This document shows, piece by piece, positions 4,042-29,991 of a DNA stretch of 62,749 nt (the first letter of the stretch is position 1; each line of letters opens with the position of its first letter). Under the pieces are notes generated by a model. The model had not been told where the DNA came from. It worked only from the letters and a program-made list of their open reading frames with translations, and made no database searches. The position numbers were made by a program, and so were the translations under genes. Source of the DNA: a virus (taxonomy: Duplodnaviria > Caudoviricetes); the IMG/VR virus record IMGVR_UViG_3300042520_000420, positions 1-62,749 of that record; one strand, written 5' to 3'.

Positions 4042-7000
4042 ATGACTATCGAAGTCGAGTTAGTTGATGGTCGAATTCTTGAATTTCCTGATGGGACTTC
4101 TCCCGCTGTTATTCAAAGCACAGCCAAAAAGGCTACGCAGGACAAGTATTTTGGTGTCAGCACCGCAGAGCTAAAGGCCGCTCCGTCTGCGCCAATGTCG
4201 TTTGGCGATACAGCAAGAGCTGGTATTGCTGGCTTGACTGGCGCTCTTGGCTCTGCTGTTTCTGCATTTGGTGCAGATACAGCCCCAGCCCAAGGACTGA
4301 GATCTCTGACTGAGTCAATACAGTCTGGCATGACTCCCGAGCGCCTTGAGGAGCAGCGCCGCCGTGATGAGTTGATGCAAAGGTCTGAGAAAGAAGGCCT
4401 TGGCGCTCAAATCTTGGCTGGTGCTGGCGCTGTTGCCGAAGCGCCAATTCAATCAATTGCACAAGGCTTGGGATCATCCATCCCTGCTATTGCCGCAGGC
4501 CTTGCTACCGTGGTTGCTGGCGCTCCTGTAGCCATTGCTGGAGCAGTGGGTCTAGCAGCCCGTGCCATTTTTGGCGCAGTCCAAGGCGCAGGTGAAGCCA
4601 AGAGCGACATCTATTCCAGCGTCAAAGCCAAGCTCATGGAGTCTGGCAAGAATGAAGCCCAAGCTGAAGCTGAAGCCGCAAAGGCTCAAGAGTATGTAAG
4701 TAAAAACCTGCCCGGAATTATTGGTAGCTCTTTGGCTGGTGCAGTTGATGCAGCCACCGGTGTTGAATCTATTGTTGGTAAAGGTGCGTTTAAATCTGCC
4801 GTTAAACCGCTTGAGAAGCCAAGCCTGCTGCGTGAAACGTTTAAACAAGCAGGCAGCGAAGCTTTGCCAGAAGGTCTTCAGGCTGGTGTTGGTCAGGTTA
4901 CCCAGAATGTTGCACTGCAAAACGCAGGATTTGATACATCTACATTTGAAGGTGTAGCGGGGTCGGTTACCCGTGACGCATTGATGGGCGCATTGACCGG
5001 TGGAGCCGTGACTCCACTCCAGATGTCCAGCCTGCGCAGAGACTATGAGCTTGATAAACAGCGCAAGGTTGAAGAAGAAAACCGTGTTTTAGAAGAAAAA
5101 ATTGCAAAGGAAGAGCAAGCCCGTCAAGAGCAGATAATCAAAACCCAAGAAGATCTTGGTTTAAACAGGGAGTTTCCTGCGCTGCCCGCCCCGGCAGAAC
5201 AGATCGAAGAGCCTCCTGTTGCTGTTGATCCTTTAAAGAACCCGCTTGGCAATATTCAAAAGAACGAGATCCCCGAGATCTCTCAAACCATTGATGAGTA
5301 CCGCAAGAATGCCAACCTGCCTCCTCTGAAGGATTATTCTGTTGAAGATCTTGTGGATGCCATGCCCGGAACCGACCCAAGGGGCGAAGAAGGTCTTTTA
5401 AATGAATGGCTTACAGCAAAGACCGGATGGACTAAAGCAGATAAGATGACCGCCCAGCAAGTGCTGGATCAAGCCAAGCTTAAGAAGATTGAAACCAAGA
5501 CCAAGGGATTTGAAGACTTTCTTGCCCGTGTCACCGGTTATAGAGATCTGACAACCATGTCGCAGCCGCAGCTTTTTGCTGCGTTTAAAGCTCTATCTGC
5601 CTTACCTGAATCTGAAACAACTCAGATCCTCCCAGAGGGAACAAACGCCAGCCGCTTCAGCGAAGACCAATACCGCAAAGCATTAGATGGCGTTGACCAA
5701 TTGCTGGATGGCTTGGTGTCTAAGGATGGAAAGCCAATACCTCTTGATCGTGGTCAGGTGATCAAGGAGATCCAACAATACACTGGTCTAACGAAGACTG
5801 AACATGCTGAATCCATTTTGGATGAGGCTATTCGCCTTGGTGACTTAGACTCCGTTAAGACACCTCGTTACCGCATGGTTGACCCAGCCACTGGGCAGCT
5901 TAAGGGCGTAGCCTATGACAACCGCAAGGCTGCTGACGCTGCTGCCAAGCAACGTGGCTACGATGTAAAGCAGATCACTGCCGAGGGCATCACTCCACCA
6001 TCCACCGCTGCCACGCTGCCAGAAGGTTTTGACATCCGCAAGGGCTCGTTTAAAGAGGGTGAAGCCCCAGAGGGCTACTCCGTCATGGCGGGTGATGAGG
6101 CTTTGTATCAGGCAAAAACATCGGAAGAAGCTGCCACCAAGAAAGCCAGCTTTGAGAAAACCCGTGCTGGTATGGCTAACGCCATTGACAATCAGATTGC
6201 CCAGAAGCTCAACTCCGTAGAGCAAAGCCAAAGCCGTTTAAACAAGATGGAGGCTATGGGCGAGGGGCAGACCGACAACTACGCCAAGGCTAGAGGCAAA
6301 CATGCCCAGCTTGAGGAAAGTGTTGCTAAGGATGTCGAGGGTTTGCTTGAAAAGAAAGCCAAGTACGAGAGCCCCATCAGCATTAAGGCGTTTGGCAAGA
6401 AGGCGGTAGGACGCACAGGCTACACAGTCTTTGAGGGAGGGGAGGCAACAGCTACCTACCCAACCCGCACAGCCGCAGAAGAAGCAATTCTTACAGCAAG
6501 ATCAGATGATGAATTAAAGCAACTTACCAAAGACCAAGGCAGGCGTGGTCTGGGCAAGCGAGCCGAAGCCGAGATCCAGCGCAGAGCCGCTCCACCTCCC
6601 ACTGAAGGTAAGAAGGTCTCTGAAGTCTTGGAAGGCATTGAAGAAGAGAAGAGAAAACCAAAGCCCATACCTCCTGAAGTTAAAGCAAACATTGAGAGGC
6701 TTGAGAAGGAACTTCGTCCATTGATGGAGAAGCTCGGTCTGGGCAAGGTGACTTTAAACGTAGTTCAGGATATTGAGAACAACGCAGAAGGTGCGTTCTC
6801 CAAGACCTTGATGCGTATTGCGTTGGATTCGGAAAAACCTGTGCGCACCATGCGCCATGAGTCCATCCACGCATTGAAAGAACTTGGCTTCTTCACGCCT
6901 GCGCAGTGGAACACCCTACAACGCATGGCAAAAGACAAGTGGATCCAGACTTATCTGAAAGATAAGAATGCAATCCACAAAGGTAAATCCATGACACGCT

Positions 7001-10000
7001 TTGATGCGTACATGGATATTTACGGTGGGAATATGGACACTATCATGGAGGAGGCCATCGCTGATGCGTTTGCTGACTTTGATGTAAACAAGGCTCCTCC
7101 CGGTCTCATCACTGCCCTGCTCAACAAAATCCGTGCGTTCTTTGAGGCTTTGCGTAATGCAATGGCTGGCGCTGGATTCCAGACTGCCGATGAAGTCTTT
7201 GGCATGGTTGAGCGTGGTGAGTTGGTGGAGAACCCATCTGCTTGGAAAGCCACACCCGAGGATGAGGAAGAGGCGGCAAGGTACTCTGTCAACAACGGTA
7301 TTGATCCCTACATATCAGGCGGTCAGCTTAATGTGCCAATGGAGTCGGATGGAACAAAGTACTCCATCAAACAGGCTTACACCCCAGAACAAATAGCCAA
7401 GTCGGCGCAAGCAACAAACCGCAAGGGTGAGACAAAGAAAGTCAAGATCCTTAAGAACGATCCAATAACTGGCTTGCCTCTAAACCAAAACGGCACAGTC
7501 ACGCTGTATTACCCAACCGACAACGCTGGCGCACGAGAGCTTGCCAGAACCAAGCGTTTAAAGGGTCACTCACCAACAGCCAATCGCATTTACTTGACCA
7601 ACGAGTCCAGTGCGCCTGCTGTTGCCACAAATCCCGGAATGATTGAGCAACCCTTGGGTGGCGCAAATGTTTTGCTTGAGATTGATCCATCCTTGCTGCA
7701 CGAGCTAGAAGACCGTAAAGATGGGCGCAGAGATTTCTTCATTCCAATTGCGGAAGGCGCAGTGTTTGCCAAGAAGATGAAGAAGACCAAGCTGTTTACA
7801 CTGAACGCTTTGCGTACCAAGGGTTTGCACCCAGACCGCACACTAAATCAGGTAACCAAGATGGTTAACGATGCGGCGGCTAAATGGGCGGCTTCAAATG
7901 CAAAAGACCGCAGTGTCATGGCGAAGCAAGCCAAAGACACATTGCTTGCAGACCACAACATCACCAATCTGTTTGGAGCCAACTCTAAGCTAGAGAAGAC
8001 CAATATAGGTGAGTATGGGCTAACTTACAAAGACAAGAACGTCATGTCCACTGGCCTTGGCTTTGCCTCGGCTCAAAAGATTAATGATGAGCAACGTGCC
8101 ACCACTTGCCCTCAGTCGGGTATTTGTGAAGATCTGTGCCTTGGCGAAACATCAGGGCAGAACAGGCTCTATGGTGGCGAAGGTCAGTGGCGCTCAGGCC
8201 CCCGCTTGTCCCAGTATCTAAAGACAGAGGCCTTGGTTGTTAATCCTGAAGCTTTTGCGATTGCAATGATTAAGCAAATCACATCGTTCCGTAAGGCTGC
8301 TCAGGATTTGGGTTATTACCCAGCCATCCGTTTAAACGTTACATCTGACTTCAATCCAAAAACATTTGAGAACATCATCAACATGTTCCCTGATGTTATG
8401 TTCTATGACTACACCAAGCTAGACACCAAGCCAATCGCTCCCAACCACCACCTGACTTACAGCTCCACTGGAGCTTCTCAGGTTGTTGATGACGACATTG
8501 TTTACAACAAGTTCTCTAATTGGGATCGCATGGTGGACAAGGTTCTACCAAGCGGGCGCAATGTTGCTATGGCCTTTACAAGCCGTAGTGCAATGCCTAA
8601 GTTTGTGATGGATCAGCGCACAGGCAAGAGTTTTGAAGTTTGGAATGGTGATGAGTACGATGCTCGATTCCTTGATCCAGTTAGGAAAGATGGCGATGGC
8701 TGGATTATTGGTCTAACCAACAAGGACAACACTACCAAGCCAGAGGATGCTGCCAAGAAACACAATGGTTTCTTCCTTGACTATGACCCCGAGCGGGATG
8801 GCGACACCCTTGTCATTCAAAATCAAGAAAAACTCAAGACTGGCGCACCTCAGCCAATAACTTTTACCAAGAAGACTGAAAAATTTAGCCTTAGAGATTT
8901 GCCTCCAGAGCCGGGTACTCAGCCAATTCCAAAAGGAATGGTGCGCTTATACCACCAGACAGACTCTGAATCTCTTGCCAATATTTCCAAAGAAGGCTTG
9001 TCTATTAAATATGCCAAGGGTGTCGAAGGCCCCAAAGCTATTTATGCGGGTGAGACTCCTTTCTACGGCCCAGCAGATACAAGGCCAACCGTAGAATTTT
9101 TTGCTCCAAAAAATCAGTGGGACGCTCCTTTTGTTTTGGCTGATGTAAGCCCAAATCAAATCATTGCAGCCCATTACCCTTGGCACAAGCAGGCAAGATA
9201 TTTGGAGGCAGAGCCAGACTCAATGAAGGTTGCGTTGGATGGCGGGTTTGACAACTTGACAGATCCTGACACGGCAACGGCTGTTAAATACATCAAAGAC
9301 AAATACAAAAATCAAAAGCCTGAGAAGTACAGTCTCCGGTCTGCTCCTGAATCTGAAGAGTTTAAACAGTGGTTTGGCGACAGCAAGATTGTTGATTCCA
9401 AAGGCAAGCCCGTATTGCTTTACCACGCCACCAACTTCTCAGAAGAAGACAAGATTGACCAAGAGAACGTCTTCTCTGTGTTTAAAGAGTCTGATGACGG
9501 TAAGCTTGGCGCAGGCATCTACGCCTCATCCCTACCCAAATACGCAGAAAGCTATGGCCCAACTGGCACAGTGATGCCTTTGTACGCCTCCATCAAAAAT
9601 CCTTTGGTCATTAATATGGATGCCGATGGAATTGAGACTGACGCAGATGGCTATCAAAGCGTCACAACCAAGGTTGGTATCAGAGCCAACACTGCGCTTG
9701 AGGGTGTAGCCAAGAAGATACTGGCTAAGAACCCTGACTTCAAAACAGAGAGTAAACGCTATCTCAGAGGCTCAGAGGTTCAAGAGTTATTGGAGATGGG
9801 CGGGTATGACGGCGTTGTTTTAGAAGACAACGAAGGCAACTTTGTAGAGGTCAATGCGTTTAAACCTGAACAGCTTAAGTCGTCCATTGGGAACATTGGG
9901 ACTTACGATGCATCCAACCCAGACATTCGCTTCAGCCTGAAAGAGGCCCCAAATACACCTGAGTTTAAACAGTTCATAAAAGACAGTAAGGTTGTAGATG

Positions 10001-13000
10001 AAAATGGCGACCCACTTGTTGTTTACCATGCAACGGGCAAAAACTTCAACACATTTGATCCAAAAAAACTTGGTCAAAACACTAAAGATGCAACCGCAAA
10101 ATTAGGATTTTTCTTTGCCGGAAACGTAGATGCGGCAGACGAGTTTATGCGTCAGATGACCTACAAAGGTGTGGGCGAATACCAAGCTGGCGCTAATGTA
10201 ATTCCAGCTTACCTTTCCATAAAAAATCCTTTTGAAATTTCATCTGCGAATTTTGGAATGCAAATGACGGCGTTACAAAGAATGCCGCAAACAAAAGCCA
10301 AACAATTCATTGCTGATTTTTTGGTAGACGTTAAAAATGAAGGGTTTGATGGAATAGTAATTAGATCCACAAGAGGTACAGGCACAAGTTTATTTAAAGC
10401 AAAAGAGTTTGGTGCTGACAATTGGGTTGCGTTTGAACCAACTCAGATTAAATCTGCAATTGGTAACGTTGGATCATATGGTCAACGAGCGCCTACAGCG
10501 TCAGAAGCAAAGCAACTTGGTCTTACGCAGAAGAAAGCCGCCGAGCTTCAGGAAAAGGGTGATGTTCGCTTTAGCTTGCGTAAGGCTCCAGATACGCCAG
10601 CGTTTAAACGATTCTTTGCAGGTAGCAAGGTTGTCAACGAGGACGGATCGCCCAAGGTTATGTACCACGGCACAAACAAAGACTTCAATGAGTTTTTGAT
10701 TGCGGAGAAGGCAAATAGAACCGGAATGCCTGATGGCTTCTATTTCACATCAGATGCTGAAGATGCCAGCCGGTATGCAAAAGGCGATGGCGCTAATGTT
10801 ATGCCTGTCTACCTAAGCATCAAGAGTCCATATAACCTTGGTGGAAAGAACAAAATCTCCAAAGAGATGGTCATGCAATTTAGAGATGAGTTGCGTCAAG
10901 ACAACCCCAATCTACCGTTTAGCTGGATACAGGAAAAGGTCAACATCTTTAAGGAAAACACTGCCGCAGGCAGATTCCCATTCCCCAGCATCAGCTTCCC
11001 CACGGCGGCGATGCAAAGAGTTTTTGAGGCGGGTGGGTATGATGGCTTGATTGATGGCAGCAGAGTCTTTGTTGCGTTTAACCCAAGTCAAATTAAATCT
11101 GCTACCGGCAACATTGGAACCTTTGACAAAGAAAGTTCAGATGTTCGTTTCAGCCTGCGTTACAGCCTTGACCCAAGCATTGAAGAGCGTGTAAACGCTA
11201 CAACCACTTCCCGGGAAGAGAAGGGCCACATTGATAGGATGATTGAGGCAATCTCTCCATCCACCTATTCCCGCTTCCGTGCGCAAGCTTTAAACAGGTA
11301 TGACAGGCTCTCTGAGTACGACAAGATGCTTGCCAAGCAAATGGGTGGAGTTGAACTCCTTGCTGATGCGAGTGCGGAAGCTGCCGCCCTGATGTCTGAT
11401 CTTGGTGCTGGCATCACCGCCTCTGTCTTGGGTGTACATGACCGCAACGGTGGCATCCCTGTGTTCCGCAAGGGCGTTACAACGGTGGACGGATCCATCA
11501 AAGGTCCAATCTCCATCTTTGTGCCGCTGGCAAAGCTCAACAACCCCAAGGCCTATCGAGATTACCAATTTTGGTCTGGCGTTAAGCGGGGTCGCCCATT
11601 CATTGGCGCAGGCGGCAAAGAGTTGTTGTTCCAAGAAGGCGACATCAAGCAGGCCGAACTCTTAGAAAAAGAATACAAGGACATGGGTGTCTCCTTTGAT
11701 CAAATCCAAAAGGAATGGATTCAATTCAACAATGGATTGGTTAAATACCTTGTAGATACTGGAGTCTTGTCTGAGAAGCAGGCTGATCTTTTTACTAGGT
11801 ACAGCGACTACGTCCCCTTCTATCGTCAGATGGATGGTGAGAAGACTGTTGGCCCCAACATCTTCCAATCAATCTCGGGCGTTAAACAGCCCAAGAAATA
11901 CAAGGGTGAGACCGAGGCTCCATTGGCTGACTTCCTTGAAACAATTGTGCGCAACACTCAGTCTGCCATTCAGATGGGGGTCAAGAACACTGCCGCTCAA
12001 CGTGCAGTCGGCGTGGCGACCCAAATCCAGATGGCTGAGAAGCTGAAGTACAAGCCTAAGTCAATGATTAATGTTGTTACGGTTTTGGAAAAAGGCCAAG
12101 AGGCCTATTACGAATGCTATGACCATTTGTTTATTGAGTCAGTCAAGAGTTTAAACATCCCAGATCTGCCGTTTATTGGTCTGCTTTCTGCCCCGGCAAA
12201 CCTGCTGCGTAACTTGGTTACCAAAGATCCCGGATTCATGATGGCAAACATGTTGCGTGACTCCTTGTCTGCTTGGGTAACCAGCGGAGCAAAGATGACA
12301 CCTATTGCATCCACTATCGCTAACTTTGGCAAGTCCCTTGCTGGGACTTCTCCAGAGTTCAAGGCGCTTTTAAACGCAGGTATCTTGGGTGGTTACGAGT
12401 TCTCCCAGAACACAGAGCAAAGCGGCAAAACCTTGGCCCAAGCACTGCGTTTAAAGGCGGGGACAGGAAATCTGGGCGACAAAGCCAGCAGCCTGTGGGA
12501 TTTGCTGGAGAAAGGCACAACAGCCTCCGATGCAGCAACAAGGATTGAAGTCTACAAAAGCACCCTTGCCGAGACTGGAAATGAGGCAGAAGCCCTGTTC
12601 CGTTCTCTGGAGGTAATGAACTTCAACAGGAAGGGCAGTTCTGCCGTTATCCGTGTAATGACTGCCGCCATCCCATTCTTGAATGCTCGTATGCAGGGCT
12701 TGGATGTTCTGTACCGTGCTGGCATCAGACCCCTCACGGACAAGCTCTTTTTTGGCAAAGAGCCAACCGAAAGAGAAAAAGAAATCCAACGCATCTTCTT
12801 TGTTCGTGGCATGACCATCACCGCCTTGTCAGCCATGTATTGGTTACTCACACACGATGATGAAGAGTACAAGAAACAAGAGCAGGAAACAAGGGACAAC
12901 AATTGGCTCTTCCCATCTCTTGGCATCAAGATTCCTATTCCATTTGAGGTTGGCGTGATCTTCAAGGTTATCCCTGAGAGGATCATGGCGGCAACGCTAG

Positions 13001-13713
13001 GTGAAGATACGTCCAAGGATTTCACTGAATCAATGATGCGCAATCTGCGCTCTACGTTGGCAATTGATTACTTGCCTCAAACGCTTAAACCAATTGTTGA
13101 AGTATCGTCAAACTTCTCCTTCTTCACCCGCAGACCAATCGTTGGTCAGGGCTTAGATGGGGTGTCCGATCAATTCCAAGTTGGCCCGACTACCAGCATC
13201 ATTGCGGAAAAGATTGGCAAGCAAATTGGCATGTCACCAATGAAAGTTGATCACCTGATCAGTGGATATACAGGCTCGCTGGGAATGTATATGGTAGATG
13301 CGCTTGATGCCATCATGGATATGAACAATGATTCGCCCAAAGCCGCCAAACGCTTTGAGCAAATGCCAGTACTGAAACGTTTCCTTTTGGATCCAGAGGC
13401 CAGAGGAACTGTGTCGGCGTACTACGAAATGAAGAACTCAGTTGATGAGACTGTGCGCACATCCAATCTATTGGAGAGAACAGGCAACTACGAAGAGTGG
13501 GGGCCTTACATGCAGGACAACATCAAGATGCTTTCAACCAAAGATTACATCGCTGATCTTGAGAAGTCCATGAAAGAGTTTAGGGAGATCCAAGTTCTGA
13601 TTAGAAGCTCAAAAATGAATGCAGTCGAAAAGCGGGAGGCCCTTCTAAACATTACCAAGGCTCAAAACGCCCTGACAGCCAACATCCAACTTCTCAAGAA
13701 GAACGTACAGTGA
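4042..13713 (+). CDS. Large polyvalent virion protein: zincin metallopeptidase, ART-like domains, GP88-like domain, 3x ART-PolyVal-like domains, C-terminal LPD38-like domain
   Basis: 3223 aa; RHESIH...EEAIADAF; CPQSGICEDLC...IRLNVTSD...FYDYTK; three YH(A/G)T...G(I/F)(Y/F)...V(M/I)PxYxSIK(N/S)P...G(Y/F)DG repeats; IPFLNARMQG...IPIPFEVG...PIV C-terminus. Confidence 0.8.
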   Translation: MTIEVELVDGRILEFPDGTSPAVIQSTAKKATQDKYFGVSTAELKAAPSAPMSFGDTARAGIAGLTGALGSAVSAFGADTAPAQGLRSLTESIQSGMTPERLEEQRRRDELMQRSEKEGLGAQILAGAGAVAEAPIQSIAQGLGSSIPAIAAGLATVVAGAPVAIAGAVGLAARAIFGAVQGAGEAKSDIYSSVKAKLMESGKNEAQAEAEAAKAQEYVSKNLPGIIGSSLAGAVDAATGVESIVGKGAFKSAVKPLEKPSLLRETFKQAGSEALPEGLQAGVGQVTQNVALQNAGFDTSTFEGVAGSVTRDALMGALTGGAVTPLQMSSLRRDYELDKQRKVEEENRVLEEKIAKEEQARQEQIIKTQEDLGLNREFPALPAPAEQIEEPPVAVDPLKNPLGNIQKNEIPEISQTIDEYRKNANLPPLKDYSVEDLVDAMPGTDPRGEEGLLNEWLTAKTGWTKADKMTAQQVLDQAKLKKIETKTKGFEDFLARVTGYRDLTTMSQPQLFAAFKALSALPESETTQILPEGTNASRFSEDQYRKALDGVDQLLDGLVSKDGKPIPLDRGQVIKEIQQYTGLTKTEHAESILDEAIRLGDLDSVKTPRYRMVDPATGQLKGVAYDNRKAADAAAKQRGYDVKQITAEGITPPSTAATLPEGFDIRKGSFKEGEAPEGYSVMAGDEALYQAKTSEEAATKKASFEKTRAGMANAIDNQIAQKLNSVEQSQSRLNKMEAMGEGQTDNYAKARGKHAQLEESVAKDVEGLLEKKAKYESPISIKAFGKKAVGRTGYTVFEGGEATATYPTRTAAEEAILTARSDDELKQLTKDQGRRGLGKRAEAEIQRRAAPPPTEGKKVSEVLEGIEEEKRKPKPIPPEVKANIERLEKELRPLMEKLGLGKVTLNVVQDIENNAEGAFSKTLMRIALDSEKPVRTMRHESIHALKELGFFTPAQWNTLQRMAKDKWIQTYLKDKNAIHKGKSMTRFDAYMDIYGGNMDTIMEEAIADAFADFDVNKAPPGLITALLNKIRAFFEALRNAMAGAGFQTADEVFGMVERGELVENPSAWKATPEDEEEAARYSVNNGIDPYISGGQLNVPMESDGTKYSIKQAYTPEQIAKSAQATNRKGETKKVKILKNDPITGLPLNQNGTVTLYYPTDNAGARELARTKRLKGHSPTANRIYLTNESSAPAVATNPGMIEQPLGGANVLLEIDPSLLHELEDRKDGRRDFFIPIAEGAVFAKKMKKTKLFTLNALRTKGLHPDRTLNQVTKMVNDAAAKWAASNAKDRSVMAKQAKDTLLADHNITNLFGANSKLEKTNIGEYGLTYKDKNVMSTGLGFASAQKINDEQRATTCPQSGICEDLCLGETSGQNRLYGGEGQWRSGPRLSQYLKTEALVVNPEAFAIAMIKQITSFRKAAQDLGYYPAIRLNVTSDFNPKTFENIINMFPDVMFYDYTKLDTKPIAPNHHLTYSSTGASQVVDDDIVYNKFSNWDRMVDKVLPSGRNVAMAFTSRSAMPKFVMDQRTGKSFEVWNGDEYDARFLDPVRKDGDGWIIGLTNKDNTTKPEDAAKKHNGFFLDYDPERDGDTLVIQNQEKLKTGAPQPITFTKKTEKFSLRDLPPEPGTQPIPKGMVRLYHQTDSESLANISKEGLSIKYAKGVEGPKAIYAGETPFYGPADTRPTVEFFAPKNQWDAPFVLADVSPNQIIAAHYPWHKQARYLEAEPDSMKVALDGGFDNLTDPDTATAVKYIKDKYKNQKPEKYSLRSAPESEEFKQWFGDSKIVDSKGKPVLLYHATNFSEEDKIDQENVFSVFKESDDGKLGAGIYASSLPKYAESYGPTGTVMPLYASIKNPLVINMDADGIETDADGYQSVTTKVGIRANTALEGVAKKILAKNPDFKTESKRYLRGSEVQELLEMGGYDGVVLEDNEGNFVEVNAFKPEQLKSSIGNIGTYDASNPDIRFSLKEAPNTPEFKQFIKDSKVVDENGDPLVVYHATGKNFNTFDPKKLGQNTKDATAKLGFFFAGNVDAADEFMRQMTYKGVGEYQAGANVIPAYLSIKNPFEISSANFGMQMTALQRMPQTKAKQFIADFLVDVKNEGFDGIVIRSTRGTGTSLFKAKEFGADNWVAFEPTQIKSAIGNVGSYGQRAPTASEAKQLGLTQKKAAELQEKGDVRFSLRKAPDTPAFKRFFAGSKVVNEDGSPKVMYHGTNKDFNEFLIAEKANRTGMPDGFYFTSDAEDASRYAKGDGANVMPVYLSIKSPYNLGGKNKISKEMVMQFRDELRQDNPNLPFSWIQEKVNIFKENTAAGRFPFPSISFPTAAMQRVFEAGGYDGLIDGSRVFVAFNPSQIKSATGNIGTFDKESSDVRFSLRYSLDPSIEERVNATTTSREEKGHIDRMIEAISPSTYSRFRAQALNRYDRLSEYDKMLAKQMGGVELLADASAEAAALMSDLGAGITASVLGVHDRNGGIPVFRKGVTTVDGSIKGPISIFVPLAKLNNPKAYRDYQFWSGVKRGRPFIGAGGKELLFQEGDIKQAELLEKEYKDMGVSFDQIQKEWIQFNNGLVKYLVDTGVLSEKQADLFTRYSDYVPFYRQMDGEKTVGPNIFQSISGVKQPKKYKGETEAPLADFLETIVRNTQSAIQMGVKNTAAQRAVGVATQIQMAEKLKYKPKSMINVVTVLEKGQEAYYECYDHLFIESVKSLNIPDLPFIGLLSAPANLLRNLVTKDPGFMMANMLRDSLSAWVTSGAKMTPIASTIANFGKSLAGTSPEFKALLNAGILGGYEFSQNTEQSGKTLAQALRLKAGTGNLGDKASSLWDLLEKGTTASDAATRIEVYKSTLAETGNEAEALFRSLEVMNFNRKGSSAVIRVMTAAIPFLNARMQGLDVLYRAGIRPLTDKLFFGKEPTEREKEIQRIFFVRGMTITALSAMYWLLTHDDEEYKKQEQETRDNNWLFPSLGIKIPIPFEVGVIFKVIPERIMAATLGEDTSKDFTESMMRNLRSTLAIDYLPQTLKPIVEVSSNFSFFTRRPIVGQGLDGVSDQFQVGPTTSIIAEKIGKQIGMSPMKVDHLISGYTGSLGMYMVDALDAIMDMNNDSPKAAKRFEQMPVLKRFLLDPEARGTVSAYYEMKNSVDETVRTSNLLERTGNYEEWGPYMQDNIKMLSTKDYIADLEKSMKEFREIQVLIRSSKMNAVEKREALLNITKAQNALTANIQLLKKNVQ

Positions 13714-15157: not shown

Positions 15158-15793
15158 TCATGTGTTCTTCTCCTTGATGTCGTAAAACCAGTCATCTCCT
15201 GCGCTCCACTTGCGTGTGCCGTCTACGGTATAAAAATCTTTAGCGGCCTGAAAGTCGGGAAACTTTGTCTCGGCAGGAATTAAGGATTGGTCGTACCAAA
15301 GGCATCTGTTGTTTGGCTGACAAGCAAACTGTCCGTTGTCCAACATGATCCAGTTAAAGGATTTGTGTTCTTCAGCCTGTTCTGTGAACCCAGTATCCAG
15401 CGTCAGCTCATCTGCACAAAAATCTACAGTGAAAAGATAGCGACCAAAATGCCACTCTTTGTCCTTACCAAGAAACTTTACACCAAGATTTCGTAAGCCA
15501 ATCTTTTCGATGATGGTGAATCTGTAACCCATGCAGTCCCACAACTGCAACGTGTCAATAGACAAAGTGCCGCTGTAATCTTCTTGCCAAACATACGCAT
15601 GGATGGGCAGCTTGTCATACAAAGCGCCATACGCTGGCAGCAATGACTCAATGCGAAACACCTGACCACGCAGCGCCTTAAGGCTCACCCAAATGGCTGG
15701 CTCCAACTCGCCGTGACCTTTGGTGTGGTTGTACAAAAACTCACGTTTTACAAAACATTTAATGGGTGGTAACGATGCCACGATGTAGCTCAT
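15158..15793 (-). CDS. Hypothetical phage protein
   Basis: 211 aa with a good RBS; stop/start overlap with both neighbours. Confidence 0.7.
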   Translation of the reverse strand: MSYIVASLPPIKCFVKREFLYNHTKGHGELEPAIWVSLKALRGQVFRIESLLPAYGALYDKLPIHAYVWQEDYSGTLSIDTLQLWDCMGYRFTIIEKIGLRNLGVKFLGKDKEWHFGRYLFTVDFCADELTLDTGFTEQAEEHKSFNWIMLDNGQFACQPNNRCLWYDQSLIPAETKFPDFQAAKDFYTVDGTRKWSAGDDWFYDIKEKNT

Positions 15794-26819: not shown

Positions 26820-28538
26820 TCATGCCGCCAACTTGATCTGCTTGAATGTTGCAGTGCCAAGATCAGTCACGTTGCTGATCATGATGCCTTGACCATAGGT
26901 GCTGGTAACGTCATTGCAGATGCCGATACCGATTGTGGTGATGCCAAGATTGCGACCAGCGTCAGCCTGTTGCTTGACTGCATTGCGGTTACCGTCACCG
27001 TCAGTGATAACAAAGCAGATCTTGCGCTCTTCACGGCGACCCAGCAACATATTGTGGGCATAGCGCAGGGCAAAGAAGTCATTGGTAGCACCACCATTAC
27101 CAACCGCCTGCAAGAGCGGCAGAGTGCGCTTGTAAGGGGCGCTGAATGGCTTGATGATGGACGCCTCGTCACCGAATGTCAGCACGGCGGTTGACACATT
27201 GGCGGCACTGAGGGTCTCCAGCAAGGCGGCACAAGTCTGCACTGCTGGGCTGATGTTGCTTGCTTTTATGTCATAACCAAACATGGAGTTGGAAACATCC
27301 AACACGATCACCACTGCAGAGTCGATGCCCTCGACCTCTTCACGGCGTTTAAACAGATTGACGTTGCCGATGGGGATTGTCTTCAGTGTGCGAGAGTTGA
27401 TCTTGCCTGCACGTTGGTTGGGGTTGTAGTTGCTGGTATCGCTGTTGTCGAACAGGCGCTTGACTTCAAAGCGCAGGCGAGCAGGCACTGCATTGGTCAA
27501 GGTGATACGCTGATTCATGCCGACATGAGCGCCATCTTTTTTCAGCGATGAATGCTCGGCGTATGTACCGTGCGTTGCTTGACCCTTGGGTGCTTGGTTG
27601 CTGGGCTCGACCAAGACTGCCTGAGTCTTGGAAGTGATGGGCTTGGCAGTGCCTGCATCAGGGGCATCAGCGCCATTGTCGGGGTCACCCTTGGGGTCAC
27701 CCTTACCTTGACCCTGATCGGGGCTTGTAGGGGCATTCTGACCGTCCTCAGAGGCATCACCTTGACCAGCATCACCTTGGGCTTGACCGTCTTGTGGCTG
27801 ACCAGCGTCACCATTTTGGAACTGACCGTCTTGATCACCAGCGTCACCATCTTGGGGTTGATCGGGTTGATCAAGCTTGGGTGCATCGGCGGTCTTGGGC
27901 AGTTGGTTGTAAACCCACTCAGCGATGGCGAGGGTATCGGCGCTGGACTTTGCAACCATTGTGCGTTTAAACGCTTCATCGAATATGGGCTTGAGTCCCA
28001 GTGCGACAGGCACTTTTTGAGTCGCATGGCGGCGGCAGTACACGGCGAGGGCAAAGGGGTATTGGGCGGGGTTAGTCCAATCGACCTTGGCGGCAAGGGC
28101 TTGATCGACCATGTCATCGATCAGAGCGGTCAGCGTGGCAGTGATGTTGCCCAGCAAGTTGGCGGCGATCCCAGCGTGTTCGATGTATGCGTCCTCGACT
28201 GCATTGTGCAGGCGTTGAACGTAACCGATGGATGCTTGCACGTTGAAGTCGGTGTACTTGGAATGAAGCAATTCATGGATGATGAAACCCACATACTTGG
28301 TCATGGTTGCTTGGGTGATCACTGCATCATCTTGAATGTTGGCGACCTTGACCACGCCCTTGGCGTTGACGCAAGCGGTTTGTGTGCCTACGCACCAAAT
28401 CAGGCGTGGGTGTTTCACGCCCAGTGCTTGAGCGGCATGGTGAAAGAACGAGTCGATGGCAGAGCGGAACTGGTAGCCACGCACCGAGCGGCGACCAAGC
28501 ATTTGCTGAATTGTGGTGATGGGTTTAGCGGTTGTCAT
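26820..28538 (-). CDS. CobT-like vWA protein with an N-terminal HExxH domain and acidic low-complexity linker
   Basis: IHELLH...NAVEDAYIE; MIDAS LDVSNSM, GATND, VITDG; start ATG 28538 after GAGG. Confidence 0.8.
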   Translation of the reverse strand: MTTAKPITTIQQMLGRRSVRGYQFRSAIDSFFHHAAQALGVKHPRLIWCVGTQTACVNAKGVVKVANIQDDAVITQATMTKYVGFIIHELLHSKYTDFNVQASIGYVQRLHNAVEDAYIEHAGIAANLLGNITATLTALIDDMVDQALAAKVDWTNPAQYPFALAVYCRRHATQKVPVALGLKPIFDEAFKRTMVAKSSADTLAIAEWVYNQLPKTADAPKLDQPDQPQDGDAGDQDGQFQNGDAGQPQDGQAQGDAGQGDASEDGQNAPTSPDQGQGKGDPKGDPDNGADAPDAGTAKPITSKTQAVLVEPSNQAPKGQATHGTYAEHSSLKKDGAHVGMNQRITLTNAVPARLRFEVKRLFDNSDTSNYNPNQRAGKINSRTLKTIPIGNVNLFKRREEVEGIDSAVVIVLDVSNSMFGYDIKASNISPAVQTCAALLETLSAANVSTAVLTFGDEASIIKPFSAPYKRTLPLLQAVGNGGATNDFFALRYAHNMLLGRREERKICFVITDGDGNRNAVKQQADAGRNLGITTIGIGICNDVTSTYGQGIMISNVTDLGTATFKQIKLAA

Positions 28539-28545
28539 GTTGACC

Positions 28546-29991
28546 TCAGATGTTGTTGGCGATGAATGACTGATCGATGCAAGCTTGCTTGATCGCTTCA
28601 ATGGCGGCGTGGGACTCGGCGGGTTGCTTGGCGACAATGGTTGACTCCCATGCCTCGTTGACGCTCATCATGTCGAGTGAGCGAATGAATGCGAGAACGC
28701 ATCGAATCGATGGGGCATCGACAACATCACCAGTGGCGACCTTGGTGCGAGCGACATGGACTGCTTTAAGAACGTGTCTCGCCAACTCGGGCTTGCAGTT
28801 TGTGTGGTTGACCACTGCCTCGACTTCTTTTTCAAGGGGTAAGAAGTCAAAGTGAACGACTCGGGCAAAGCGATCAACGAGGGATGAATTCATTTGACGA
28901 GTGTCGGCATACCGACCCGAGTCATCACCATTGCCCAGCGTGTTGTCGGCAGTGAAGACCAATACCCCAAGGGCTCGTCTCCACACTGCACCGCCGTAGG
29001 AAACGGCACTGCGAGGCTCTAGGAAGCCATTCAAGGGGGCTAAGTTACCAGCGGCGGCATTGGTGACCTCGTCCAACAGAATGACCGTTGATGGGCTTGT
29101 AAAGGCGGTCAGGAAGTCCCTTGGTTGGAACTGAGTGCCTGTGGTTGGATCGTACCCAGTGTCACCGAGGTAATGGGCAGGCTCAGTGTGCTTTTCAAAG
29201 TTGATGCGAACAAAATTGCGACCAGTGCGAGCGGCAAACTGCTGGGCGGTCATGGTCTTGCCTGTACCCTTGTCACCGCCGAACCATACATTCTCACCAG
29301 TGCGCTGGGATTGAATCAAGTGGCGCAGGATGGTCTCAGTCCAAATGAACGTGTCATCGATGGCGGGTGCGTTGGCGTGATCCCAAATGTCAACTATCAC
29401 AGGCTTGCCCTTGGCATCTCTCAGGTCAATGCCGAATACATCGATGCAGGGCTTGGATGCCACGACAGTGGCGGCGACCAGTGACCCGATAACGTCTTGA
29501 GCCCCAGCGTCCTCGACTGCCTGCTTGAACGGTTTAAACGCATCAGCGACTGCTTGGGTGACTGCAAGGTTGACCGAGGCGGGATCGACCACTGCCTGCT
29601 TGGTGATGGCATCGACTGACTGCTTGAGTTGATCGATGCGACCATTCGCAATGAACAGGGCATCATCCAGTTCTTTAGCCTGCTCATGGTTTTGCTGGGC
29701 GATGGTGACCGAGGTCTTAGCCTGCTTGAGGGCATCAAGGGCGACTGACTCAGCCCGAGATGCGGCTTGGGCGGCGGCATCAACCTTTGCAGTGTCGTGC
29801 GATGCGGCGGCGGGTGCTTGGGCGATGCAGTCATCGATGCTGATTTTGCCTGCCACTACCAAGTCAGCGAGGCGCTCGGCGGCTTGGGCTTTGCTGACTG
29901 CCATGTGGTCAGAGATGTACTTTTTGTAGGCTTGGTTCACTGCCACTGTGGGCAGGGTGAAGATCTTGTCGAAAATGATTTGTCTGCTCAT
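28546..29991 (-). CDS. MoxR/CbbQ/CobS-type AAA+ ATPase
   Basis: GGDKGTGKT, ILLDEV, ADNTLGNGD...Y...NSSLVDRF. Confidence 0.88.
   Translation of the reverse strand: MSRQIIFDKIFTLPTVAVNQAYKKYISDHMAVSKAQAAERLADLVVAGKISIDDCIAQAPAAASHDTAKVDAAAQAASRAESVALDALKQAKTSVTIAQQNHEQAKELDDALFIANGRIDQLKQSVDAITKQAVVDPASVNLAVTQAVADAFKPFKQAVEDAGAQDVIGSLVAATVVASKPCIDVFGIDLRDAKGKPVIVDIWDHANAPAIDDTFIWTETILRHLIQSQRTGENVWFGGDKGTGKTMTAQQFAARTGRNFVRINFEKHTEPAHYLGDTGYDPTTGTQFQPRDFLTAFTSPSTVILLDEVTNAAAGNLAPLNGFLEPRSAVSYGGAVWRRALGVLVFTADNTLGNGDDSGRYADTRQMNSSLVDRFARVVHFDFLPLEKEVEAVVNHTNCKPELARHVLKAVHVARTKVATGDVVDAPSIRCVLAFIRSLDMMSVNEAWESTIVAKQPAESHAAIEAIKQACIDQSFIANNI

Follow-up and report, generated by a model that had tools for sequence, protein, structure and literature searches.

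The locus considered here raises the question of why a single, very large phage polypeptide should carry the same short peptide again and again between its domains. The polypeptide (P0001; 3223 amino acids (aa) plus stop; positions 4042..13713, + strand) is the product of the last gene in a plus-strand run of virion genes in IMG/VR virus record IMGVR_UViG_3300042520_000420 (Duplodnaviria; Caudoviricetes), whose 62,749 nucleotides (nt) are called the window throughout. The peptide, which in its strict form reads [KR][FY]S[LIV], is very probably functional. From its sequence and setting we think it rather likely that it marks a processing site, and at about even odds (a probability near 0.5) we propose that this polyprotein has in it a recognition site of its own, which an HExxH metallopeptidase domain of the same chain cleaves in cis.

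Polyvalent proteins are polypeptides of phages or conjugative elements that unite from 2 to 15 disparate domains, catalytic ones among them, and P0001 belongs with them, as an earlier inspection of the DNA made without database searches (the sequence-only reading) had supposed. Pfam recognizes the ADP-ribosyltransferase (ART) domain ART-PolyVal in three stretches (PF18760; aa ~1766-2369; 222.7 bits against a gathering threshold of 31.2), GP88 (PF17338; aa 1344-1551; 62.9 bits against 24.4) and LPD38 (PF18857; aa 2940-3110; 117.9 bits against 27), to which the HExxH domain is added. NCBIfam holds no family for the protein as a whole, and a blastn search of nt 6000-12000 against cultured phages gave no match.

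The strict motif stands at eight places, each of which the sequence-only reading had located correctly: RYSV at nt 7279 (aa 1080), KYSI at nt 7357 (aa 1106), KFSL at nt 8881 (aa 1614), KYSL at nt 9325 (aa 1762), RFSL at nt 9928 (aa 1963) and again at nt 10567 (aa 2176), and a double copy, RFSL followed by RYSL, at nt 11146 and 11158 (aa 2369 and 2373). The DNA pattern offered in that reading for the three ART-tail sites, GAYRTTCGYTTYAGCYTG, matches every one of them (GACATTCGCTTCAGCCTG, GATGTTCGCTTTAGCTTG and GATGTTCGTTTCAGCCTG). Eight copies were reached in none of 2000 shuffles of the protein (mean 0.35, maximum 4), and P0001 together with 120 homologues (all from one search; 1787-4259 aa) contains 397 copies where composition predicts 35.8. 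The 272 distinct contexts define an extended consensus, D-[IV]-[RK]-[YF]-S-L-[RK], in which position +4 is basic in 207.

Conservation singles out six of these sites. The strict motif is present at aa 1106 in 99 of 119 aligned homologues, at aa 1963 in 54 of 65, at aa 2176 in 60 of 79 and at aa 2369 in 58 of 77; at aa 1614 and aa 1762 it is found in 21 of 36 and 23 of 39, figures that rise to 32/36 and 36/39 with a relaxed pattern. The remaining two copies are lineage-specific, RYSV at aa 1080 being kept in 14/114 aligned homologues and the second half of RFSLRYSL (aa 2373) in 3/79. Other lineages carry R[KR]SLR, K[PA]SLR and similar forms, which leads to a general motif, [KR]-x-S-[LIVM]-[KR], of which [KR][FY]S[LI][KR] is the form used by P0001. 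The residue before the Ser varies widely (F, Y, L, M, K, P or A), and the Ser itself becomes Ala at some sites in a lineage with IRE[SA]R. The notion of a concerted Y/F-to-L change in one homologue, P0029, was weakened, since L and M occupy that position in many lineages.

The six conserved sites are joints between modules. Two AlphaFold2 (AF2) models, one of aa 841-1620 (48-sequence alignment; mean predicted local distance difference test score, pLDDT, 71.5) and one of aa 1600-2400 (39 sequences; mean pLDDT 67.9), place all six in, or no more than 3 residues from, coil of pLDDT <50 between confident cores, and place RYSV at aa 1080 inside a helix. The earlier claim that the copies stand at domain boundaries holds for these six, which are conserved and lie in coil between modules, and fails for RYSV at aa 1080; the trailing RYSL at aa 2373 is not conserved. 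All features of the string lie on the + strand. Joint 1 (KYSIK; aa 1106-1110; 7357..7371), where pLDDT is below 50 over aa 1095-1113 and Ser1108 is invariant in 48 sequences, opens onto a module assigned by Pfam and VIA-align (7372..8880), which joins an ART-like region (~aa 1140-1236) to a GP88, weakly radical-SAM-like region (~aa 1270-1590). Joint 2 (KFSLR; aa 1614-1618; 8881..8895) precedes an 'X' module that has no Pfam family and constitutes cassette family F2 (aa 1619-1761; 8896..9324). Joint 3 (KYSLR; aa 1762-1766; 9325..9339), joint 4 (RFSLK; aa 1963-1967; 9928..9942) and joint 5 (RFSLR; aa 2176-2180; 10567..10581) introduce three Pfam-defined ART-PolyVal modules in turn (aa 1767-1962, 9340..9927; aa 1968-2175, 9943..10566; aa 2181-2368, 10582..11145), and joint 6 (RFSLRYSL; aa 2369-2376; 11146..11169), of which the first copy is the conserved one, closes the string. 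Conservation and low pLDDT support joints 2 to 5 alike, with breakpoints of homology in addition at joints 2, 4 and 5.

These breakpoints were taken from the ends of BLAST high-scoring segment pairs between P0001 and its homologues (at least 40% identity and at least 100 aa; ends at protein termini ignored). The sequence-only reading had expected domains to be gained or lost among homologues at these linkers, and breakpoints do gather at the motif, with 187 of 302 segment ends no more than 15 aa from a copy, against 6.7% for random positions. When the variable region was cut at the motif in the 68 of 120 homologues in which both conserved anchors could be located, the resulting 178 pieces of at least 60 aa grouped, with reciprocal coverage set at 70% or more, as 25 module families. 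ART-PolyVal accounts for 115 of the pieces, the X module for 14 and a third family for 9, and 22 families are smaller. Module number and order vary widely, down to one module in P0120 and none in P0119. Discrete module families therefore stand between the motifs in variable number and order, and P0001 is, as had been described from the sequence, a cassette string punctuated by the motif.

The distribution of the motif beyond the string is equally restricted. Not a single copy occurs in the 14,870 aa of the other open reading frames (ORFs) of the window, scaffold and capsid candidates included, which argues against processing by a prohead protease in the style of T4 or phiKZ; no prohead protease or head-module protease family was found in the window, where a divergent protease could escape recognition. 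The HExxH domain type itself is represented in 1409 representative clusters at E<=0.001 (141 at E<=1e-30). Among the matches listed, 142 new representatives hold 221 strict copies against 37 expected, 3 of them upstream of the first HExxH (107,087 aa) and 218 downstream (241,957 aa). The general motif, counted in 42 complete representatives, is observed 133 times in the module region (11.1 expected) and 5 times in the 50 residues before the peptidase core (0.5 expected), against once in the N block (4.1 expected) and once in the C block (6.7 expected). Three cultured relatives that share the LPD38 block only (PTXU04 gp25, Vibrio 1.232.O gp28 and Pag-Yong1) have no copy of the motif, and HExxH is missing as well from two of them.

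The strongest evidence for a recognition site comes from natural swaps, in which one module is found in different polyprotein families beside different motifs. The core of ART module 3 is identical at 159 of 204 aa (78%) to a module in L011 (1-5555) and L012 (1-6979), with DNA identity of 80-82% over nt 10603-11102. Those two sequences encode a different giant protein, in ORFs of at least 1851 and at least 2326 aa, in which no [KR]xS[LIVM] occurs; the ART module is flanked there on both sides by [FI]L[FLE]NV (2 and 3 copies against ~0.4 expected), and it adjoins a HEL[TA]H domain that can be aligned to the P0001 domain in its HExxH helix only. The X module recurs at 54-72% identity in at least five further groupings (our own, drawn by flanks and HExxH sequence), each with its own motif on both flanks: [AM]FS[QR]K in P0384-P0392, whose HExxH reads HE[ML]VH (three copies each in four proteins checked); AKLSV in P0393; a 25-residue repeat, VSLDAM.LALLNVPKMA.GG, in P0397; FM[PS]AK in P0398; and SEQFSR[AT] in P0399, where each of the seven copies lies downstream of that protein's HExxH. 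When the 5-mers on either side of the X module are compared, at least four of five residues agree in 9 of 21 proteins (shuffled flanks: 6.6%) and all five in 3 of 21 (shuffled: 0.05%); the other 12 pairs are alike by residue class only.

Since modules that have changed families bear the recipient's own flanking motif, the motif belongs to the host polyprotein and not to the module, and the HExxH domain is the only enzyme in cis that varies along with it. Both the family-specific joint motifs and the way they change from one host polyprotein to the next are newly observed here, and the swaps show phages rebuilding their injected toolkits module by module. We tentatively extend them, at rather less than even odds, to a 'punctuation code' in which each polyvalent family would pair its own embedded metallopeptidase with its own joint motif ([KR]xSL[KR] here; [AM]FS[QR]K, SEQFSRA, [FI]LxNV or FM[PS]AK elsewhere), and modules, moving freely between families, would be re-punctuated on arrival. 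If such a code is real, thousands of injected effectors would have their true limits marked by these motifs, and each peptidase and motif pair would represent an orthogonal, sequence-specific protease system.

The candidate enzyme (aa 878-1048; 6673..7185, + strand) contains HESIH at aa 939-943 (nt 6856-6870) and, further along, a conserved EEAIAD helix (nt 7048-7065). His939, Glu940, His943, Glu1003 and Glu1004 are invariant in 48 aligned sequences and both motifs are in predicted helices, so that the HExxH helix and downstream metal-binding Glu looked for in a zincin-like metallopeptidase are present. In the AF2 model the domain, a stretch of high confidence, is all-helical (pLDDT 55-93); the feature looked for was the three-stranded sheet that precedes the HExxH helix in a zincin core. 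LPD38 accompanies it at the C-terminus in 13 of 15 representatives scanned. Its nearest named Atlas clusters, which are leads only, are LPD23 (0.95), LPD1 (0.90) and MuF_C (0.84). One further protein, P0253 (4460 aa), has four stretches matching this domain and a long helix-turn-helix array, with no strict copy of the motif.

The features by which a self-processing polyprotein may be recognized are found in P0001: a repeated and conserved site, exposed linkers at the joints, and restriction to the polyprotein. We therefore picture an N block and HExxH domain followed by a variable string of enzyme modules (ART-like/GP88, X and three ART-PolyVal) and a conserved LPD38 C block, with [KR]-x-S-[LIVM]-[KR] lying in a flexible linker at every joint of the string. 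The protein's own metallopeptidase domain would cut the motif, and the modules would come free as effectors in their own right, at the time of packaging or ejection or later. Zincins usually prefer a hydrophobic residue at P1', and for this reason the bond between Ser and Leu is proposed as the scissile one. The motif Ser was also considered as an autoproteolytic nucleophile, for which autoproteolysis of the Nup98 or SEA-like kind provides a precedent; we reject this idea, because Ala takes the place of Ser at some sites of the IRE[SA]R lineage and because the residue before the Ser is variable. Between the peptidase and joint 1 lies a 'WKAT' mini-module (aa 1065-1105; 7234..7356, + strand), with ~40 conserved residues of the form 'WKAT...NGIxPYxSxGQL' and, in P0001, the non-conserved RYSV (7279-7290) inside a helix. 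In several lineages (e.g. P0035, P0036, P0037 and P0079) it has joint motifs on both sides, and cutting of the joints would set it free as a small peptide.

Module exchange at the joints is real and recent. In the L009 lineage the core of ART module 2 (aa 1982-2171; nt 9985-10554) is ~90-100% identical in DNA to the P0001 gene, whereas its flanks are at most 70% identical and the neighbouring modules differ; of every 10 third codon positions, 7-10 agree in most blocks of the exchanged stretch and 5-10 when all blocks are counted. The identity starts ~15 codons past the upstream motif and stops just short of the downstream GD[VI]RFSL, where 16 of 30 nt and 2 of 10 third positions are identical, the synonymous sites of the motif being saturated while the peptide is kept. 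The sequence-only reading had cast the linker as a recombination junction as well, and this stands in so far as exchange does break near the joints. The part that assigned a role to the motif's DNA is not supported: exact matches between joints in the window do not exceed 8-9 bases, the DNA of the motif shows no conservation over and above that imposed by coding, and with the L009 block ending before the motif, we reject DNA-directed recombination at this sequence. Selection for intact modules explains the position of the breakpoints better than does motif DNA acting as crossover substrate, because only joint-to-joint recombinants would keep working modules. The joint Ser is encoded by AGC or AGT in 6 of 8 cases in the window, 6/8 in L008, 6/7 in L009 and 3/5 in L010 (21/28), against 31% gene-wide, a bias which suggests that the joints share ancestry and that their Ser has been held continuously.

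Such common descent, together with the paralogy of many ART modules, could be taken to mean that the motif is functionless in itself, a scar or adapter inherited with duplicating, recombining modules. To this we give very little credence: the motif persists where the surrounding modules have diverged to ~25-35% identity, its peptide outlasts the saturation of its synonymous sites, unrelated modules carry it, and it is replaced by that of the recipient when a module changes family. A functional linear motif that is never cut, serving for docking or packing (against the capsid interior, DNA, portal or a chaperone) or as a site of modification, for instance ADP-ribosylation of Arg or Ser by the protein's own ARTs, would be expected to be conserved, exposed and family-specific, as any recognized linear motif is. 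It would also accord with those proteins that carry a metallopeptidase and remain intact; in the portion consulted of one survey of polyvalent proteins (PMC5512222), N4 vRNAP, ArdC and TraC1 are given as bearing such domains yet being transferred unprocessed. An ART-related role is further permitted by the age of the tail 'GNxGxF...PDI[RT][FY]S' after ART-PolyVal, which is ancient and widespread (Pseudomonas phage F116 p60; Dolichospermum phage Dfl-JY45), and the motif may have started out in part as an ART-domain trait; in P0198, a stand-alone ART, the chain ends at '...PDITK'. However, the ART-free members P0015, P0119 and P0120 retain the motif, the change of its Ser to Ala in the IRE[SA]R lineage is contrary to modification of that residue, no candidate partner has a matching feature, and occurrence between modules only, with scarcity in the N and C blocks, is what would be expected if the site, like a cut site, did harm within a domain. 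We regard an uncut motif as unlikely.

Cleavage by another enzyme, either a host protease after ejection or an unrecognized phage protease, with the HExxH domain acting instead on the cell wall or on host proteins, draws on a different set of observations, which like the unprocessed carriers and the ancient ART tail weigh against cutting in cis. The zincin fold is unconfirmed. No Pfam peptidase model exceeded its cut-off (the best, Tox-MPTase4, reached E=0.085 and 13.2 bits against 25), and a peptidase family matched the domain in none of 15 representatives scanned; Foldseek against the PDB returned nothing at E<=0.001, and no zincin, for the aa 841-1620 model; a wide VIA-align comparison gave unspecific helical matches only (model residues 35-205), with no zincin; and phmmer against the PDB yielded one irrelevant match (E=1.1). 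Because no curated model reached threshold and no zincin fold was matched, we call the domain metallopeptidase-like, on the strength of the invariant HExxH and downstream Glu only. A complex prediction of the domain (A1 30-225) with a 40-residue joint peptide (A2 346-385), run without controls, scored 0.01 against a mark of 0.32, a result that carries no weight in either direction. The related ART tail is present in many proteins whose chain lacks an HExxH (e.g. the Dfl-JY45 protein, P0145, P0236 and P0238). In the part seen of a preprint on phage phi24B (bioRxiv 10.64898/2026.04.10.717836), a peptidoglycan-degrading role is suggested for the analogous peptidase domain of gp47, and fragments are not mentioned. 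On the statistical side, the region counts come from related sequences and their Poisson p-values are indicative only, the depletion of the strict motif in the N block is not significant on its own, and the correlation of motif type with HExxH type is confounded by shared descent. Nevertheless, unlike the sites of prohead proteases, the motif is in no other phage ORF, and it changes from one polyprotein family to another around an unchanged module. A conserved host protease would not easily account for this, unless the hosts varied in parallel with the families. Cleavage by a separate protease is on these grounds distinctly improbable, and a polyprotein-specific site read by the embedded HExxH domain continues to be the reading we prefer.

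Polyvalent proteins are widespread, and their proposed self-processing is not known to have had a defined site before; the joint motif provides a candidate, and with it a concrete and cheap test. It likewise offers a way to delimit effector modules in metagenomic phage proteins, and, should cleavage be confirmed, a collection of protease and site pairs that are orthogonal by nature.

The remaining parts of the protein and its surroundings deserve brief description. The N-terminal block (aa 1-870; 4042..6651, + strand) has no Pfam family and no motif copies; its long Gly/Ala-rich hydrophobic stretches (window 4200-4950; aa ~55-300) have a membrane-active look, as for an ejection protein, in a reading of sequence only. 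The C-terminal block with LPD38 (aa 2377-3223; 11170..13710, + strand), likewise free of motif copies, is conserved in giant podophage virion proteins. Fold matches of the modules by VIA-align are all weak (Z <8). For the GP88 region (window ~7850-8810) the best rows are the radical-SAM enzymes 4fhc (Z 5.9) and 3c8f (Z 5.5); a Cys cluster, C-x5-C-x3-C, is conserved there, and the annotation of related phage genes is Gp37/Gp68-like. Upstream of it, aa ~1140-1236 (window ~7460-7750) match the ART-fold proteins 3aq3 (Agrobacterium 6b; Z 5.7) and 7zhl (Rhs TreTu; Z 4.9), as well as diphtheria toxin (Z 4.1), and would represent a fourth, unannotated ART-like region. The top Foldseek row for the ART-module model (aa 1600-2400) is the cyanophage A4 pre-ejectosome chain 9k3a_B (E 5e-4; root-mean-square deviation 15.7), followed lower down by catalytic domains of PARP and an anti-CRISPR entry, 6kyf. 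The A4 match hints that related modules may exist in solved podophage ejection complexes; in the portion consulted of the A4 pre-ejectosome paper, ADP-ribosyltransferases are not mentioned. The window as a whole encodes small and large terminase subunits, portal, major capsid protein, an SU10-type adaptor, tailspike, primase/helicase and exonuclease. Two minus-strand genes are possible auxiliary metabolic genes, one (15158-15793) matching a ferredoxin-family PHROG at E 3e-74 and the other (26820-28637), which encodes a 605-aa protein, matching a PHROG of cobalamin-biosynthesis type.

Among known systems, the packaged effectors of T4 (the internal proteins and Alt, with their capsid-targeting sequence) and the inner-body proteins of phiKZ come to mind, in that they also bear a short consensus site. 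In head processing of those phages, however, the same site is found on scaffold and capsid proteins and is read by a separate prohead protease, whereas the motif of P0001 is in no other ORF of the window and no prohead protease was found there. A closer formal parallel is provided by the polyproteins that RNA viruses of eukaryotes encode, in which an embedded protease acts in cis on a short site that is repeated at the joints and avoided elsewhere. These share no domains with P0001, use another class of protease, and release a fixed replication set, in place of swappable accessory enzymes whose cleavage is here predicted.

That same analogy is drawn by Iyer, Burroughs, Anand, de Souza and Aravind (2017; PMC5512222), who in the part of their survey available to us predict that polyvalent proteins are divided into functional units by metallopeptidase domains. 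Self-processing as an idea is thus already in print, and in the literature searched, of which some sources were seen in part, we did not find a defined joint motif, its family variants or evidence from swaps. The main text of that survey, in the form seen, describes no joint or cleavage motif and uses 'linker' 0 times, while its supplementary alignments may show the ART tail; the accessible portions of PMC12002296 and PMC10386132 hold nothing on cleavage. As cited in the survey, DdrB of phage P1, a polyvalent-type protein with a C-terminal metallopeptidase, is reported to undergo one processing step, before packaging, and no joint motif that repeats is described for it there. Gp47 of phi24B and the DarB-like protein of Bcep22/JC1 (PMC9144972) resemble P0001, to judge from the parts of these sources seen, in their LPD38 C-terminal block, their length (2800-4600 aa) and their place in a virion gene module, and differ in carrying methylase/helicase, LPD1/LPD5 and MuF-C modules. 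Gp47 has been detected in phi24B virions by mass spectrometry, according to the same preprint, and by analogy with it, and from its own position in a run of virion genes, P0001 is proposed to be virion-associated and delivered with the DNA. The polyvalent proteins described in PMC5512222, as far as that source was seen, correspond to P0001 most fully, each being a giant polypeptide with an HExxH peptidase-like domain, ART-PolyVal and LPD38, encoded among virion genes. To that described set the present analysis adds, in distinction from it, an HExxH clade that has no Pfam model and a punctuation of the joints that is specific to each family.

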